From contig JBGSSF010000035.1 of the NCBI GenBank assembly GCA_041737175.1, positions 10,232 through 74,231 of the forward strand: a stretch of DNA of 64,000 nt, read 5' to 3'. Under the pieces are notes generated by a model, which searched no databases, was not told the DNA's origin, and worked only from the letters and a program-made list of their open reading frames with translations. Positions 15,942-62,502 of the stretch are shown piece by piece. Both the position numbers and the translations under genes were made by a program. This DNA is from Bacteroidales bacterium. Lineage in GTDB: Bacteria; Bacteroidota; Bacteroidia; Bacteroidales; UBA10428. How positions within the stretch are numbered: the first letter of the stretch is position 1; each line of letters starts with the position of its first letter.

Positions 15942-17981
15942 ATGAAAAGAAATCTACTTTTTCTATCAAACCTTCTGATGTTCTCCCTGATTTTGATGCA
16001 GGGGGTGAGGTCACAGACAACGGTGCTTGACATTATTGTCGGCAGTGCGGATCATGACACCCTGGAAGCCGCAGTTATTGCGGCCGGACTGGACGACGAC
16101 CTTGCAGGGACAGGGCCTTTCACAGTTTTTGCTCCAACCGATGCGGCCTTTAAAGCATTGCCCCTGAATGCACTGGATGCCTTGCTGGAGGATCCGGAAG
16201 GATTCCTGGCTGATCTGCTGCTAAATCATGTGGTAAACGGAACACTGATGGCGGGGGATCTCACAAATGAACAGGTTCTGACAACTTTGCTGGATGAAGA
16301 TGTAACGGTGACCATCAATGATGATGGAGTATTTATTAACAATGCAATGGTCACTGTCGCTGACCTGGAGGCCGATAACGGTGTTGTGCATGTGGTAGAT
16401 GCCGTGATCATTCCTAGTTTTAATACCGTTATGGATATTATTATATTCAGTCCTGAACATGATACACTGGAACTTGCTGTGGGTTTAGCCGAACTGGATG
16501 ATGACCTAGTCGGGGAAGGACCTTTCACCGTCTTCGCACCCACCGATGCTGCTTTCAAGGCACTGCCCGCAGGAACAATTGAAGCGTTGCTGGGAGATCC
16601 CACCGGTGACCTGGCCGATATTCTCCTCTATCACGTTGCAGCCGGGAAGGTCATGTCTGGAGATCTGTCTGACGGACAGGAAATTGTTACTCTGCTGGAC
16701 AGGGAGGTTAACGTAACCATTAGCGAGGAGGGTGTCTTCATCAATAACGCGAAAGTTTTTGTCGCAGATATTGTTGCTGACAATGGCGTGGTTCATGTGT
16801 TGGATGCCGTTTTGATCCCGCAGGCCGAAACGGTTGTGGATATTATTGTAGGTAGTGCTGCGCACGACACTCTCGAAGCTGCCGTGATTGCTGCCGAATT
16901 GGCTGACGACCTGGCAGGCGAAGGCCCCTTTACCGTTTTTGCACCCACCGATGCTGCTTTCAAGGCACTTCCCGCAGGAACAATTGAAGCGTTGCTGGAA
17001 GATCCCACCGGTGACCTGGCCGATATTCTCCTTTATCACGTTGCAACCGGGAAGGTCATGTCTGGAGATCTGTCTGACGGACAGGAAATTACCACACTCC
17101 TGGGCAAGGATGTTACCGTAACCATTAACGAGGACGGTGTCTTTATCAATGATGCCAAAGTCATTCTTGCTGACCTGCTTGCCGATAATGGTGTAGTGCA
17201 TGTTATTGATGCCGTGTTGATACCTGCAGTCGAAGAGGCCGCTTTCCCGATCGACTTTGAAACCGAAACGGATGCCGTGTGGGAAGTTTTTGCCAATGGC
17301 ACAGGAAGTGCGTCTGATTTTGAAGTAATCGCCAATCCGGATAAATCAGGCGTCAATACTTCGGACAATGTACTGAAATTCGTTGTTAATGCCAATGCAG
17401 ATACCTATGCAGGCGCTTTCTCGAATTCCTATGCACCCGTCGAATTCACCCAGTCTTCCCATACCATTACCCTGATGGTCTGGAAATCCGTAATCAGTCC
17501 GGTAGGATTCAAAGTCGAAGCCAGTACGAACGGCGGTCCCGTCACGGAGGTCAAGGTTTCCAATACGGTTACCAACGCATGGGAATTGCTCACGTTTAAC
17601 ATGAGTGCATGCATCGGCTATTCCTATGACAGGATCGTGATATTCCCTGATTTTCCGGAAACCAGGACAGCCGGTACCACGGTTTATATTGATAACATTG
17701 AGAGAAAAGAGGAAGCTACCGGAATACTGAACCTGGACGAAGATTCCAAGGGTCTTACCATCTACCCGAATCCGGCTTCCGGTTATATCCGGCTGTCAGG
17801 TCTCGGGGACCTGAAGGAAGGGATGATGCGGATCATTAATACCGGCGGCGTAGAAGTTGAGAACCGTTTTGTAAAGGATCTCTCTGGCACTATCGATGTC
17901 AGCAGGCTTGATCAGGGGGCCTATTTCCTGATACTTGAGTCCGGAAGCAACCGTTATACCGGAAAACTGTTCAAAAAGTAA
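15942..17981 (+). CDS. secreted protein with three tandem FAS1 (fasciclin) domains, a beta-sandwich domain and a T9SS C-terminal sorting domain
   Basis: The track ORF opens at a TTG (15900). The ATG at 15942 gives MKRNLLFLSNLLMFSLILMQG, a signal peptide. There are three ~135-aa repeats with GPFTVFAPTDAAFKALP and NGVVHV.DAV.IP. The C-terminus LTIYPNPASGYIRL...YTGKLFKK is a type-A T9SS CTD. Confidence 0.8.
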   Translation: MKRNLLFLSNLLMFSLILMQGVRSQTTVLDIIVGSADHDTLEAAVIAAGLDDDLAGTGPFTVFAPTDAAFKALPLNALDALLEDPEGFLADLLLNHVVNGTLMAGDLTNEQVLTTLLDEDVTVTINDDGVFINNAMVTVADLEADNGVVHVVDAVIIPSFNTVMDIIIFSPEHDTLELAVGLAELDDDLVGEGPFTVFAPTDAAFKALPAGTIEALLGDPTGDLADILLYHVAAGKVMSGDLSDGQEIVTLLDREVNVTISEEGVFINNAKVFVADIVADNGVVHVLDAVLIPQAETVVDIIVGSAAHDTLEAAVIAAELADDLAGEGPFTVFAPTDAAFKALPAGTIEALLEDPTGDLADILLYHVATGKVMSGDLSDGQEITTLLGKDVTVTINEDGVFINDAKVILADLLADNGVVHVIDAVLIPAVEEAAFPIDFETETDAVWEVFANGTGSASDFEVIANPDKSGVNTSDNVLKFVVNANADTYAGAFSNSYAPVEFTQSSHTITLMVWKSVISPVGFKVEASTNGGPVTEVKVSNTVTNAWELLTFNMSACIGYSYDRIVIFPDFPETRTAGTTVYIDNIERKEEATGILNLDEDSKGLTIYPNPASGYIRLSGLGDLKEGMMRIINTGGVEVENRFVKDLSGTIDVSRLDQGAYFLILESGSNRYTGKLFKK

Positions 17982-22635: not shown

Positions 22636-22764
22636 CACAAGCCTAATGATGCGCAGCTGCGCTGCATTCATTTTTTATTTGCTTCCACCAGGATGGCACA
22701 GGAAGTGCCCTCCTGGTGTAAACAAATAAAAAATGCCGCCAAAGGCGGCATCATTAGTCTTGTG
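22636..22764. repeat. 129-bp nested palindromic element abutting the 3' end of tRNA-Arg
   Basis: Outer arms are CACAAGCCTAATGATGC and GCATCATTAGTCTTGTG. Each side carries its own GC hairpin (GCGCAGCTGCGC; GCCGCCAAAGGCGGC). The central 31-bp stem at 22669..22735 has 3 mismatches and an AGGAA loop. Confidence 0.7.
22725..22752 (-). terminator. rho-independent terminator of tRNA-Arg
   Basis: The minus strand reads GATGCCGCC-TTT-GGCGGCATTTTTTATTTG immediately after the tRNA 3' end. Confidence 0.55.
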
Positions 22765-22836
22765 ACCCCGGAGGGATTCAAACCCCCGACTTTCAGAACC
22801 GGAATCTGACGTTCTATTCAGCTGAACTACGGGGCC
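22763..22836 (-). tRNA. tRNA-Arg (anticodon CCG)
   Basis: Folded by hand as a 74-nt cloverleaf: acceptor GGCCCCG/CGGGGTC, D stem GTTC/GAAC, anticodon stem TCAGA/TCTGA with loop TTCCGGT, T stem GGGGG/CCCTC. No encoded CCA. Confidence 0.9.
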
Positions 22837-22842
22837 GGAATG

Positions 22843-22870
22843 GTAGGGACAGGTCGCGACCTGTCCCTAC
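22843..22870. repeat. REP copy 1 (28-bp perfect palindrome)
   Basis: GTAGGGACAGGTCG|CGACCTGTCCCTAC, 6 nt upstream of the tRNA-Arg 5' end. Confidence 0.9.
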
Positions 22871-22893: not shown

Positions 22894-22937
22894 GAGAAAA
22901 TTGGGGGAAGGACAAATAAAATGCACGGAATATTAAT

Positions 22938-22983
22938 GTAGGGACAGGTCGCTTTGTAGGGACAGGTCGCGACCTGTCCCTAC
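22938..22983. repeat. REP half-copy plus REP copy 2
   Basis: GTAGGGACAGGTCGC (half copy), then ttt, then the full 28-bp palindrome at 22956..22983. Confidence 0.9.
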
Positions 22984-23081: not shown

Positions 23082-23621
23082 ATGAAAAATCGCAAACCAA
23101 ACAGATTACGGGGATTTGATTATTCATCGGATAATCTATATTTTGTTACGGCCTGTGTACATAACAGGATTTGTTGTTTCGGGGAAATCGTAGGGACAGG
23201 GCGCGACCTGTCCCTACCATGTCTCGACATATCCTCTCGACATATGATTTTAAATGAATGTGGTAAAATCGCAGAAAAGCAATGGTTTTGGATGGAAGAA
23301 CAATATCCATACATTGTTTTGCATGAATTTGTTGTTATGCCCAATCATATTCATGGGATAATTGAAATAATTCGTTCACGCGTTGTAGGGACAGGTCGCG
23401 ACCTGTCCCTACAGAAAATCAAATCATTATCGGAATTAATGGGGGCATATAAAACGACAGTTTCAAAACAACTACATTCGTCCGGATTTATTGATTTCAA
23501 TTGGCAAAGGTCGTTTTATGACCATATTATTCGCAATCAAAAATCGTACGAATCAATCTCGGAATATATTGTGAACAATCCATCAAATTGGGATCAGGAT
23601 GATTTTTTTACGAACAAATGA
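23082..23621 (+). CDS. IS200-like Y1 (HUH) transposase / REP-associated tyrosine transposase (RAYT)-like
   Basis: 179 aa. N-terminus RLRGFDYSSDNLYFVTACVHNR, HUH motif MPNHIHGII, catalytic-Tyr context NWQRSFYDHIIRN. REP palindromes flank it on both sides. Confidence 0.8.
   Translation: MKNRKPNRLRGFDYSSDNLYFVTACVHNRICCFGEIVGTGRDLSLPCLDISSRHMILNECGKIAEKQWFWMEEQYPYIVLHEFVVMPNHIHGIIEIIRSRVVGTGRDLSLQKIKSLSELMGAYKTTVSKQLHSSGFIDFNWQRSFYDHIIRNQKSYESISEYIVNNPSNWDQDDFFTNK
23190..23217. repeat. REP copy 3, inside the RAYT CDS (1 mismatch)
   Basis: GTAGGGACAGGGCGCGACCTGTCCCTAC, read in frame as VGTGRDLSL (codons 37-45). Confidence 0.9.
23385..23412. repeat. REP copy 4, inside the RAYT CDS (perfect)
   Basis: In the same codon phase as copy 3. 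It encodes VGTGRDLSL (codons 102-110), ten residues after the HUH motif. Confidence 0.9.
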
Positions 23622-23633
23622 ACGAATCGATAT

Positions 23634-23661
23634 GTAGGGACAGGTCGCGACCTGTCCCTAC
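23634..23661. repeat. REP copy 5 (perfect)
   Basis: Begins 13 nt after the RAYT stop. Its last 4 nt overlap the GH43 gene and supply that gene's TAG stop codon. Confidence 0.9.
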
Positions 23662-25265
23662 GGTTTATATTCAAACCAATCAAAGTACGCCGGGGTTGCT
23701 TTGGATTTGGCATTCCCTTCGGCAAACATTCCCAAATATACCCCGGTAAAACCTCCGGCTACTTCGGATGACAGATACCTTGATTCCATTTTGCCGGCCG
23801 GAATGAATTCACTGGCCCCTTCCGGTAAATAGCTGAACGTATACCATAACGGTTCAGCAGTTATCTTGATTTGAACAGGTCCCGCCGGCAACGGGGCTTT
23901 AAAGGCAACATGCTTCAGGTTGCCGATCCGGTAACTTAAAGTAATAAATTTCTTTTCTCCGTCCCTGATAATATGTAGGTCATAGTGATGCTTTTCATTC
24001 ATCAACACGGTAATCCCCGCCGTTTCGCCTTCGGCAGACGGTTCAAATTCCAGTTTTGCCGTTGCCGTGCAGTTAAAATGCTGCTGGCGCCTGCCCACAA
24101 AGGCAGGGGAGGATGACTGGTCAAGGGTCACGGAATTTCCTGCCAGGGTCAGAAATCCGGGTCTTTCAGCCAGTGACCATGTTGCCGGATCAGGATTCCG
24201 CAGGAAATTCCAGCAAAGGTTCAGTTGCGATTTATCAAATTCATCACGCACCAATGGCCGGGCAACGGAAACCAGGGGAAGCGTTTTAACCTTGATATCA
24301 GGACTGACGATATCATCAGCACTCACAACAGGCCATCCCTGCGCATTCCAGGTAACGGGTGTTAAAAAGGTTTCCCTGCCCAGGTGGTGAAAATCTCCGC
24401 CGGCCTTCCGGAATGCAAGGAATACCATCCACCATGAGCCATCATGCGCTTCAATGATGTCGGCATGCCCGGTTCCCTGAACCTGCAGATATTGTCCGGG
24501 TAAACCCCTGTGGGTGAGTATGGGATTGTCGGGATTGGATTCATAAGGCCCCCAGATGCTTTTACTCCGGGCAATGGTCTCCATGTGACCGTATTCGGTG
24601 CCTCCCTCGGCGATCATCAGGTAGTACCAACCGTTGATCCTATAAATATGGGGCGCTTCGGGGTAACGGCCTCCCGTCCCTCCCCAGATATGCCTTATGG
24701 GTGAAAGGATATCGCCGGTTGCAAGGTCTATCTCCGAAAGGGCGATGCCGGTTTTCCCGTCAGCCATGGCATTGGTAACCAGATAATTCTTGCCATCATC
24801 ATCAAAAAACAGGGTGGGATCGATACCTCCCTGATTGACCCATACGGGCTCAGACCATTCTCCCGCAGGATCCTGTGTATGCACATAAAAGTTACCCTTG
24901 CCGGATACATTCGTCGTTACCATGTAAAACGTGCCCTTGTTGTACCGGATCGTAGGGGCGTAAATGCCCCCGGAGCTACGGCATTTGTCGAGCGGCAGCT
25001 GTGAATTTCGGGTAAGACAATACCCGATATGCTCCCAGTTGATCAGATCCTTGCTGTGATATACCGGTACACCCGGGAAGTACTCAAAGGTGCTGGTCAC
25101 CAGGTAATAATCATCGCCCACCCTGCAAACGCTGGGATCGGGATTGAAACCGGGGATGACGGGGTTGGGGAGGGTGGTGGAAGGAGCAACAACATCGCCC
25201 TGTTGGGTATGTATTGAGAAAATAACACCAAACAGGAAGATGAAATTCAAAAAGAGTGATTTCAT
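23658..25265 (-). CDS. GH43 glycoside hydrolase (beta-xylosidase/alpha-L-arabinofuranosidase type) with a C-terminal beta-sandwich domain
   Basis: The ATG at 25265 gives MKSLFLNFIFLFGVIFSIHTQ, a signal peptide. GFNPDPSVCRVGDDYYLV, APTIRY and YLMIAEGGT are GH43 five-bladed propeller motifs. The C-terminal ~200 aa look like a GH43_C2/LamG domain. Confidence 0.85.
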   Translation of the reverse strand: MKSLFLNFIFLFGVIFSIHTQQGDVVAPSTTLPNPVIPGFNPDPSVCRVGDDYYLVTSTFEYFPGVPVYHSKDLINWEHIGYCLTRNSQLPLDKCRSSGGIYAPTIRYNKGTFYMVTTNVSGKGNFYVHTQDPAGEWSEPVWVNQGGIDPTLFFDDDGKNYLVTNAMADGKTGIALSEIDLATGDILSPIRHIWGGTGGRYPEAPHIYRINGWYYLMIAEGGTEYGHMETIARSKSIWGPYESNPDNPILTHRGLPGQYLQVQGTGHADIIEAHDGSWWMVFLAFRKAGGDFHHLGRETFLTPVTWNAQGWPVVSADDIVSPDIKVKTLPLVSVARPLVRDEFDKSQLNLCWNFLRNPDPATWSLAERPGFLTLAGNSVTLDQSSSPAFVGRRQQHFNCTATAKLEFEPSAEGETAGITVLMNEKHHYDLHIIRDGEKKFITLSYRIGNLKHVAFKAPLPAGPVQIKITAEPLWYTFSYLPEGASEFIPAGKMESRYLSSEVAGGFTGVYLGMFAEGNAKSKATPAYFDWFEYKP

Positions 25266-25300
25266 AGTATTGGATTTAGTTTGTTTATTTTTTAATATCA

Positions 25301-25350
25301 CCCTTGAAGGGTCCCCAGACCCTTCAAGGGTCTAAGGACCGCTTGAAGGG
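25301..25350. repeat. hairpin repeat, CCCTTGAAGGGTC family (locus A)
   Basis: CCCTTGAAGGGTC-ccca-GACCCTTCAAGGG followed by TCTAAGGACCGCTTGAAGGG. A 32-mer here recurs at 37700..37731 with 1 mismatch. Confidence 0.8.
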
Positions 25351-34300: not shown

Positions 34301-35080
34301 TTACAAAGAAAATAAGCGAAGCACATTTTCAGTGGTTACCTGGGCCACTACATCCAAAGGTATGCTTTTTATTTGTTCCACCTTCTCTGCGATGTAAGGG
34401 ATGTAACTGCTTTCGTTGCGTTTTCCCCTGTAAGGAACCGGAGTTAGGTACGGCGAATCGGTTTCCAGCACCAGGTCATTCAGTTCGGATTTAAGCACAA
34501 TATCCGGCAGGGTGGAGTTCTTATACGTCACAATCCCCCCGATACCCAGTTTAAATCCCAGGCCGGTAACCTGACGGGCTATCTCCGGTGTACCGGTGAA
34601 AGCATGGAATATTCCGGTTAATCCCTTGTTCTTGTATCCTTCCAGAATTTCAACGATTTCAGGAAAGGATTCCCTGGCATGTATGACTACCGGCAGGCCA
34701 TACCGGAGCGACAGATCAAGCTGCCTTGAAAAGGCCAGGCACTGTTCCTTAAAATGGCTCTTGTCCCAGTACAGGTCAATGCCAATCTCGCCTATACCGA
34801 CGTAGGATCCGTGTTCCAGCTCGAATTCGACCTTCTCCAGCTCATCCTGGTAATTTTCTTTCACGGATGTGGGATGCAGTCCCATCATGGGATGGCACAC
34901 GCCCGGATACCGGACGACCATGGCATTCATTGGGGCAATGGAGGAACTGTCGATATTGGGAAGAAGAATTTTTTTGACTCCCCTTTGCAAAGCGGCACCG
35001 ATCACCTGATCCCGGTCAGGGTCAAATTCGGGAAGGTAAAGATGGGCATGGGTGTCGATGAAGTAAGATGGAAGATTCAA
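34301..35080 (-). CDS. TatD-family metal-dependent hydrolase
   Basis: 259 aa. FIDTHAHL start, GEIGIDLYW, VIHARES. Confidence 0.85.
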   Translation of the reverse strand: MNLPSYFIDTHAHLYLPEFDPDRDQVIGAALQRGVKKILLPNIDSSSIAPMNAMVVRYPGVCHPMMGLHPTSVKENYQDELEKVEFELEHGSYVGIGEIGIDLYWDKSHFKEQCLAFSRQLDLSLRYGLPVVIHARESFPEIVEILEGYKNKGLTGIFHAFTGTPEIARQVTGLGFKLGIGGIVTYKNSTLPDIVLKSELNDLVLETDSPYLTPVPYRGKRNESSYIPYIAEKVEQIKSIPLDVVAQVTTENVLRLFSL

Positions 35081-35127
35081 GATATAAGATTCAAGATTTT
35101 AGGACAAAGATAGCAGGAAAGGGGAAA

Positions 35128-35212
35128 TGTTGTGATTGTTGTGATTGTTGTGATTGTTGTGGTTGTTGTGATGGTTGTGATGGTTGTGATGGTTGTGGGT
35201 TGTGGGTTGTGT
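35128..35212. repeat. GT-rich degenerate microsatellite array downstream of dprA
   Basis: (GTGATTGTT)x3, GTGGTTGTT, (GTGATGGTT)x3, (GTGGGTT)x2. It is complementary in composition to the array at 36365..36436. Confidence 0.85.
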
Positions 35213-36364: not shown

Positions 36365-36436
36365 CCAATAACTAACTTATAACTTACAACCTACAACCTA
36401 CAACTTACAACCTACAACAACCACAACAACCACAAC
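36365..36436. repeat. CA-rich degenerate microsatellite array upstream of dprA
   Basis: CTTACAACCTACAACCTACAACTTACAACCTACAACAACCACAACAACCACAACC. Its reverse complement is (GGTTGT)n-like, mirroring 35128..35212. Confidence 0.85.
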
Positions 36437-36931
36437 CTACTTCTCACCCTTCCTCTTCCACTCCCCCAGCGCATGCAATAGCATATCCCGCTCGTGTGCG
36501 GTAAGTGCCGTTATGGAAACGGGCGGATACTTGGCAATGCCCATGCCGGTTCGCCTTAAAAGAGTGATACTTTCCCGGTATCTCATGAAAAAGGATTTTA
36601 TGTCATAACCGGCAAAATCTTTTTTCGGGATTTCGATGGAATTCTTTTTTGAAGTGAAGATATTGGGAGAGAAGAAGCGCAATACTATTTTATCGGATTC
36701 ATCGTTGTAATAGATGTAATGGTAATTTCTGAAGGAGTTGTAGATGTTCAGAATCACATAGGCTATACCAACAAAGAGAGCCAGAAGGCTGTTTTTTATG
36801 CCCTTGAAGATATCACCGACCGGCAGCATCAGGAGTGCAATAATAACTAACGCCACAATGATTATGGTGATGAAACTGCTCAGGTTCTTACGGATTATGG
36901 TTCTTTTTATATCGATGATCATGACAGGCAA
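36437..36931 (-). CDS. hypothetical two-TM membrane protein
   Basis: 164 aa. Two N-terminal TM helices and a soluble C-terminal domain. No family recognised. Confidence 0.5.
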   Translation of the reverse strand: MPVMIIDIKRTIIRKNLSSFITIIIVALVIIALLMLPVGDIFKGIKNSLLALFVGIAYVILNIYNSFRNYHYIYYNDESDKIVLRFFSPNIFTSKKNSIEIPKKDFAGYDIKSFFMRYRESITLLRRTGMGIAKYPPVSITALTAHERDMLLHALGEWKRKGEK

Positions 36932-37699: not shown

Positions 37700-37776
37700 G
37701 ACCCTTCAAGGGTCTTAGGACCGCTTGAAGGAATCTTCAAAGACCGCTTGAAAAATCTTCAAAGACCGATTGAAGG
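37700..37776. repeat. tandem array of three hairpins, CCCTTGAAGGGTC family (locus B)
   Basis: GACCCTTCAAGGGTCTTAGGACCGCTTGAAGG, then AATCTTCAAAGACCGCTTGAA, then AAATCTTCAAAGACCGATTGAAGG. Each unit is a CTTCAA...TTGAAG hairpin. Confidence 0.8.
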
Positions 37777-37852
37777 GATTTCCAAAGAATACTCTGCAAA
37801 TTTGAGTAGTTGGTATAGTTTTCGTATTTTTAGGTAATAAAATACACCGAAT

Positions 37853-62424: not shown

Positions 62425-62502
62425 TACTTCATCACTTCATCACTTCATCACTTCATCACCCCTTCACCCAATCACCCCATCACTTCATCACTTCATTACT
62501 TA
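62425..62502. repeat. octamer tandem repeat (CACTTCAT)n, degenerate
   Basis: TACTTCAT (CACTTCAT)x3 CACCCCTT CACCCAAT CACCCCAT (CACTTCAT)x2 TACTTA. It overlaps the last codons and the stop codon of the methyltransferase gene. Confidence 0.85.

Follow-up and report, generated by a model that had tools for sequence, protein, structure and literature searches.

REP palindromes that lie in frame inside RAYT genes are a family-wide trait and not a local accident. The window analysed here, a stretch of 64,000 nucleotides from a Bacteroidales bacterium, contains one such gene, a 179-aa ORF that, judged by its sequence, encodes a RAYT (TnpA-REP), a predicted HUH/Tyr single-strand DNA endonuclease. Two REPs lie within this ORF in the same codon phase, at 23190 and 23385, and the ORF stays open. 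This confirms what a first-pass annotation of the DNA had observed; the interpretation offered there is partly supported. In-frame REPs in a RAYT's own gene were already published as the hallmark of subclass 2.4, in the description of that subclass by Quentin, Siguier, Chandler and Fichant (2018, BMC Genomics 19:475; PMC6006769), and our finding is a rediscovery.

REP copies and the RAYT gene in the window

The element GTAGGGACAGGTCGCGACCTGTCCCTAC is a 28-bp perfect palindrome, present in five copies in the 64-kb window where shuffled sequences predict none. All five fall within 820 bp, two of them upstream of the RAYT ORF, two inside it and one downstream. The features of the region are as follows.

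22843..22870, no strand: REP copy 1, exact, a double-foot palindrome of 28 bp, upstream of the RAYT gene
22937..22952, no strand: half REP, TGTAGGGACAGGTCGC, left arm to centre, placed 18 bp ahead of the matching bases in copy 2
22956..22983, no strand: REP copy 2, exact, with the RAYT start codon 99 nt downstream
23082..23621, plus strand: RAYT / TnpA-REP gene, open ORF, 179 aa, with the HUH motif H89-I90-H91, WQ at 141-142 and Y162-IVNNP
23190..23217, no strand: REP copy 3, in the gene at codons 37-45 (VGTGRDLSL), 1 mismatch; site 1
23222..23245, plus strand: 13-bp tandem duplication, TCTCGACATAT cc TCTCGACATAT, units 23222-23232 and 23235-23245
23385..23412, no strand: REP copy 4, exact, in the gene at codons 102-110 (VGTGRDLSL); site 2
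23634..23661, no strand: REP copy 5, exact, 13 nt past the RAYT stop codon

Both in-gene copies begin at base 1 of a codon (23190 at codon 37, 23385 at codon 102) and are read as GTA GGG ACA GGx CGC GAC CTG TCC CTA, which gives VGTGRDLSL at each site, just as first annotated. The mismatch of copy 3 is a T to G change at its 12th base. One frame of the palindrome contains TAG, again in agreement with the earlier reading, and the second open frame encodes RDRSRPVPT. As single-stranded DNA every copy forms a hairpin of 12-13 bp with a folding energy of -11.5 to -14.9 kcal/mol (z -4.8 to -7.6); the values for the copies in the gene are -11.5 kcal/mol (z -4.8) for copy 3 and -14.2 kcal/mol (z -7.0) for copy 4. 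When RNA is folded at full length, the separate REP copies pair with one another.

The REP-RAYT cluster as a whole is bounded by a tRNA gene and a convergent ORF. The tRNA-Arg(CCG) gene (22762-22836, minus strand) has its 5' end 6 nt away from copy 1, and copy 5 forms a single hairpin between two convergent genes, RAYT and an ORF of 547 aa (23658-25301, minus strand, ending in FEYKP*). The TAG stop of this ORF, which by eye resembles a glycoside hydrolase, is supplied by the CTAC foot of copy 5. Further tandem repeats occur in the window at 35072-35211, 36374-36440, 37719-37788, 62426-62501 and 16488-17229, and their units are a 9-bp unit x7.8 (TGTTGTGAT), a 7-bp unit x6.4 (AACTTAC), a 22-bp unit x3.1, an 8-bp unit x9.5 (ACTTCATC) and a 405-bp unit x1.8, the last being a duplication that looks coding.

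N88-H89-I90-H91 lies on the strand 89-96 and Y162 of YIVNNP on the helix 153-172. Neither varies in the alignment of homologues, and the window protein retains all invariant residues and catalytic motifs of the family (HUH, WQ and YIxNNP). Profile scores rise when the inserts (residues 37-54 and 102-110) are taken out, from 19.6 to 25.9 bits for Pfam Y1_Tnp (cutoff 23) and from 52 to 64 bits for NCBIfam REP_Tyr_transpos (cutoff 80), where the match to the shortened protein spans profile positions 7-131 of 146. REP inserts drag the gene under the Pfam cutoff and further below the NCBIfam one, and such genes are easily called 'hypothetical'.

An AlphaFold2 model (pLDDT 79, pTM 0.72) has the IS200-like HUH fold, composed of beta1 (19-26), a beta-hairpin (34-37/54-57), a helix (59-74), strands 78-85 and 89-96, a helix (116-133), a strand (141-147) and a helix with Y162 (153-172). 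Its top Foldseek match is 4er8_A, the E. coli TnpA-REP with its REP hairpin (E 3.2e-5, TM 0.51/0.55), followed by the TnpA structures of IS608 and ISDra2, and a profile search of PDB sequences returned 4er8 as the sole match. The site 1 peptide forms the tip of the 34-37/54-57 beta-hairpin after beta1, in a block with a pLDDT of about 50. The site 2 peptide occupies the beta3-alphaC loop between the HUH strand and helix 116-133, beginning ten residues past the HUH motif (H91 to V102) as had been claimed, and its block has a pLDDT of 58. Model confidence is 85-95 in the core and about 50-58 at both REP peptides. The structural check suggested at first pass thus places both 9-aa peptides in low-confidence loops and not in the catalytic core, the location that had been named as the sign of a dead gene.

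The events at site 1 can be followed closely. The direct repeat that had been described as a 10-bp repeat after copy 3 is real but slightly longer, consisting of TCTCGACATAT twice with a 13-bp period; the window holds 17 direct repeats of this kind, against about 1.1 in shuffled sequences. Deleting one 13-bp unit in silico leads to ...PCLDI and an immediate TGA, and deleting the site 1 REP alone breaks the frame too, so the duplication is required for the open ORF in the window. Removal of the REP, the CATG behind it and one 13-bp unit, 45 bp together, gives CCFGEI-SRH-MILN, and the three-residue turn in GEI-SRH-MILN resembles the tight turn that REP-free homologues have at this site. The extra DNA at site 1 is therefore 45 bp, made up of the 28-bp REP, 4 nt and the 13-bp duplication, in line with the earlier argument that additional nucleotides must accompany the 28 bp. 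We infer as the simplest history a REP-containing insertion of 3n+2 bases that was rescued by the 13-bp (3n+1) duplication, and a frame restored in this way implies selection for the ORF.

The boundaries at site 1 were drawn from the short turns of distant REP-free homologues, and insert limits are given for this site only. For site 2 there is no close REP-free relative, so the proposed alignment with REP-free homologues defined the limits of the first site. In a search for sister strains, the window protein had no exact match on record, and its closest homologue is about 71-75% identical.

Recurrence of the inserts and their frame across the family

At E <= 0.001 the window protein has 3,358 homologues, the best of which are 161-278 aa long. 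Their alignment traces the variation in length almost wholly to two sites that hold VGTGRDLS-like peptides, often in several copies. Among the best 120 of the 3,358, at least one GTGRDLS-like peptide is present in 106, and GTGRD occurs 174 times against two occurrences of RDRSRP, from the other open frame. In the 101 proteins that could be parsed, the peptide was found in loop 1 in 75 and in loop 2 in 56, with both loops occupied in 41 and neither in 11; a single protein has it in a core segment. Loop 1 measures 6 to 112 residues and loop 2 measures 9 to 92. REP-free homologues have a four-residue turn at site 1 (ISQK, YHGE, DDGN or VGKK) and a linker of 9-11 residues at site 2. Decayed REP relics are common at the sites in other homologues, and between lineages the left boundary of the insert hardly shifts.

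A scan with one genome per species identified 437 confirmed relatives, of which 80 loci were fetched, making 81 with the window. Represented among them are Flavobacterium, Pontibacter, Chitinophagales, Bacteroidales, Prolixibacteraceae and a few MAGs of other phyla, and gene limits were set by tblastn boundaries. The palindrome itself lies inside the gene at 57 of the 81 loci, at about +80 to +180 or +250 to +460. Seventy-one in-gene copies are read as GTA GGG... (phase 0). Another nine were assigned to the second open frame, of which about four are genuine and five belong to the frameshifted gene of L069. Two more, assigned to the phase with the TAG, are located downstream of the gene at L011. 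Frame-broken alleles at the loops are rare, as at L069 and L135. The first-pass annotation had supposed two independent insertions in this genome, which is doubtful, as the sites are inherited and continually remodelled hot spots of the whole family.

The inserts turn over rapidly between close relatives. Three proteins (P0031, P0037 and P0040) with identical cores differ in their counts of 16-aa (48-bp) REP units in loop 1 and also of 8-aa half-REP units in loop 2. The orthologues P0017 (contig L201) and P0019 (contig L202) share about 98% nucleotide identity outside the loops. Their sole indels are one of 81 bp at site 1 and two of 6 bp each at site 2, and none shifts the frame. The 81-bp segment consists of a half REP, three 9-bp REP fragments and a full REP, and the shorter allele retains the left foot GTACGGAC. 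In both of these metagenomic contigs (L201:205-2546 and L202) the RAYT homologue is part of a type I restriction-modification operon, where it follows or precedes hsdS (Methylase_S) on one side and hsdM (HsdM_N/N6_Mtase) on the other, with the RAYT stop overlapping the hsdM start.

Within genes, 15 of 18 spacings between REPs are divisible by 3, against 24 of 65 outside them, where 48 bp is the commonest value. As spacings keep to 3n inside genes and not outside, selection on the ORF is the best explanation of the constant phase, with the frame kept at the level of the protein and not by the repeat mechanism. We considered an intrinsic repeat period as the sole cause of the constant phase and rejected it on the same extragenic count.

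Regular REP arrays adjoin RAYT genes at several loci (L008, L010, L011, L069, L029, L035 and L039). In one class of array the copies repeat every 48 bp (or 45 bp). In a second class, seen at Lutibacter and Flavobacterium loci, the interval is about 110-128 bp and as many as 10 copies lie upstream of the gene. Half REPs, running from the left arm to the central CGC(G), recur both inside and outside genes, directly before or near a full copy: in the window at 22937-22952, at site 2 of L004 and L013, and at site 1 of L202. Their recurrence suggests breakage or slippage at the centre of the hairpin.

Palindromic DNA inside and outside RAYT genes

Several lines of evidence concern the DNA of the inserts and not the peptide. 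Exact 28-mers are found in genes whose proteins are only about 50-65% identical to that of the window (L015, L017, L020, L022, L028, L034, L047 and L061). At other loci, including L001, L024, L038, L049 and L062, lineage-specific compensatory stem variants recur in both the in-gene copies and the flanking copies of one locus. These variants are ACGGGT/ACCCGT at L001, ACAGCT/AGCTGT at L024, L027, L038 and L071, ACAAGT/ACTTGT at L049 and GAGACAGG/CCTGTCTC at L062, and they alter the encoded peptide, giving for instance GTGRDPSL or GTARELS. Since in-gene copies vary together with their flanking copies, what is conserved is a genuine hairpin element at the DNA level and not a peptide.

Among 62 distinct in-gene copies, 9 of the 12 stem pairs are changed on both sides. 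Double-sided changes fill 27 cells, against 11.0 +/- 2.5 in shuffles (none of 500 shuffles reaches the observed value) and 5-12 in slid controls, counts that are inflated by the relatedness of the sequences and that may include variants taken over from the extragenic pool without selection at the site itself. Palindromes with perfect 14-bp arms make up 24 of 81 in-gene copies and 17 of 146 flanking copies at the 81 loci, in counts that ignore kinship.

The element also occurs in stretches without a RAYT-like match. Its exact 22-bp core occurs in at least 120 stretches (L081-L200) from many phyla, with several loci per genome in places, and the hosts among the matches listed include Patescibacteria, Nitrospinota, Poriferihabitaceae, Gammaproteobacteria, Fibrobacter, Calditrichia and Ignavibacteria. 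A RAYT-like match is present in just 13 of the 120, again among the matches listed. The element is thus a truly dispersed REP, with a sequence unusually conserved between phyla. Four Pfam-verified genes other than RAYT among the matches listed carry VGTGRDLSL in frame.

L087:3-2210, minus strand: gene with a Ser/Thr kinase domain, in-frame REP, Pfam-verified
L113:6744-7814, minus strand: YchF gene, in-frame REP, Pfam-verified
L143:400-1680, plus strand: Kdo transferase gene, in-frame REP, Pfam-verified
L161:74-919, plus strand: gene for a PSCyt1 protein, in-frame REP, Pfam-verified

The RDRSRPVPT frame is used in none of these four genes from the matches listed, a number too small for a statistic on phase. 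Many other long ORFs that cross dispersed REPs in GC-rich genomes have no Pfam match and were taken as spurious.

Relation to known systems and origin of the in-gene REPs

As described in PMC6006769, subclass 2.4 is defined by the motifs NH[IFV]H, WQ and YIxNNP; its members abound in Cyanobacteria and Bacteroidetes and have a scattered distribution elsewhere. The associated REPs are of a canonical long type or of a 'double foot' type with 5' GT[AG]G and 3' C[TC]AC. In-frame insertion of REPs inside tnpA-REP genes is given there as the unique feature of the subclass, with the insertion modelled as a peripheral extension of the beta3-alphaC loop, and a table in the same paper treats subclass 2.4 as equivalent to the Group 4 RAYTs of Bertels et al. 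(2017). The latter, in their account of the groups, find Group 4 to be taxonomically scattered, with flanking 16-mers modest in number.

The window gene agrees with this description (PMC6006769) in its NHIH, WQ (141-142) and YIVNNP motifs and in its long double-foot REP, GTAG-GGACAGGTCGCGACCTGTCC-CTAC. REPs flank the gene and sit in frame inside it, including in the beta3-alphaC loop (copy 4), whose insertion is variable, the protein is without a C-terminal extension, and the hosts are Bacteroidetes together with scattered phyla. Set against the published description, nothing essential is different, and by sequence signature and REP type the window gene is a typical further member of the subclass. 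Four points go beyond what is described in the relevant parts of PMC6006769, PMC3733652 and Bertels et al. (2017): the beta1-alphaA site is occupied equally often, one codon phase is used almost exclusively, compensatory variants are common to in-gene and flanking copies, and near-identical orthologues differ by in-frame indels only.

The E. coli TnpA-REP (RayT/YafM, 4ER8) shares with the window protein the HUH-Y1 fold, REP hairpins with a 5' GTAG foot and flanking REPs (the REPtron arrangement). The two proteins are nevertheless only about 19% identical, and the C-terminal extension belongs to the E. coli enzyme. The REPs of E. coli (REP/BIME), in contrast to those of the window, are imperfect, single-footed and highly dispersed, with none inside the gene. 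A second comparison is offered by Di Nocera et al. (2013, PMC3733652), whose catalogue of intragenic GTAG/CGTC REPs includes the observation that REP termini often give TAG stops, and who liken intragenic REPs to the RPEs of Rickettsia, presented there as REP-like palindromic elements from Rickettsia conorii. RPEs too are palindromic repeats that lie in frame in protein genes and encode short peptides at tolerated positions. In the window, however, the host gene is the cognate transposase of the repeat, and the two sites recur throughout the family; RPE-1 inserts are reported as longer palindromic insertions, and the account in PMC3733652 describes no RAYT association for RPEs. At 28 bp and with its RAYT association, the window element is not of the RPE type, and the resemblance is functional only.

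Our preferred explanation, which we consider probable, is that REPs multiply locally around and in the gene of their own enzyme, that slippage and deletion driven by the hairpins remodel them, and that selection leaves in-frame copies in two tolerant loops. The predicted cognate substrate of a subclass-2.4 TnpA-REP would be the double-foot hairpin GTAG...CTAC. Such REPs would accumulate beside and inside the gene of the enzyme, where the only survivors would be frame-keeping copies that land or persist in the tip of the beta1-alphaA hairpin or in the beta3-alphaC loop, out-of-frame outcomes being purged by selection for an intact RAYT. In-gene copies would remain hairpins at the DNA level, evolving in concert with the flanking REPs, and would expand, contract, fragment and decay rapidly, in the manner of a minisatellite. 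The window would then represent the simplest state, with a single REP in each loop. RAYT itself may place or amplify the copies, preferentially in cis, and the encoded peptides would be tolerated passengers and not functional parts. These results support the first-pass suggestion of a transposase gene targeted by its own cargo, which for subclass 2.4 was already in print.

Two other explanations are very hard to sustain. That VGTGRDLSL is a functional protein motif, with the palindromic DNA as its by-product, would account for the identical peptide at the two sites in most homologues. It is nonetheless highly improbable, as synonymous sites do not drift (the 28-mers are exact in genes with only 50-60% protein identity), paired stem changes alter the peptide, copy number and loop length vary (6 to 112 residues), the same REP sequence is abundant outside genes, and both segments have low confidence in the structural model. 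We rejected the functional-peptide idea on the paired stem changes, the variable copy number and the extragenic abundance. The first-pass annotation had also looked for homologues that encode VGTGRDLSL in non-palindromic DNA and REP-free surroundings; the homologues use palindromic DNA and have REPs nearby. It is just as improbable that the window gene is a recently dead pseudogene, left open by chance after two independent recent REP hits in this genome. Two of the three frames of the palindrome are open, so that a single hit can spare the ORF by chance. Against this stand the retention of every invariant family residue, the 13-bp duplication, which by restoring the frame implies selection on the ORF, and the position of the inserts at shared hot spots and not at random positions. 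Intact in-frame versions are moreover the norm in the 81 loci and 120 proteins examined, out of some 3,400 homologues. The idea of a recently inactivated gene, raised at first pass, is contradicted by the kept motifs, the family-wide intact frames and the shared sites, and we rejected it.

A more serious alternative, although still an unlikely one, is that the in-gene hairpins are kept for gene regulation, a cis-regulatory role having also been raised at first pass, either through autoregulation by a RAYT that binds or cuts its own DNA or mRNA or as an on/off switch that works by frame-shifting. In its favour, the hairpin is preserved by compensatory changes despite their amino-acid cost, occupancy of the two sites is very high, repeat number differs between identical cores, and frame-broken loop alleles, although rare, occur at L069 and L135. 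Perfect palindromes are also commoner in the gene than in its flanks, which is unexpected for pure passenger DNA. ORF maintenance alone leaves unaccounted for the bias toward the VGTGRDLSL frame, 71 copies against about 4 in the other open frame, and the near-constant left boundary could reflect one ancient insertion kept for a function. On the other side, no REP peptide can be recognised in 11 of the 101 homologues, and from one or the other site it is missing in 26 to 45, and their cores are conserved all the same; decayed relics are common; and concerted evolution with the flanking copies accounts for the compensatory variants without any selection on the in-gene hairpin. A bolder version, quite unlikely in our estimation, would make the in-gene REPs a self-targeting control device, in which RAYT activity or slippage shifts the repeat number and so leads to frame switching or to hypervariable loops that tune RAYT. 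If it were true, the strict VGTGRDLSL phase and the greater perfection of in-gene palindromes would reflect selection on the device.

The locus raises no new question beyond those of 2018. It is a clean example of the gene of a mobile-element enzyme colonised by its own substrate, and may serve as a model for how selection filters hairpin-driven indels.
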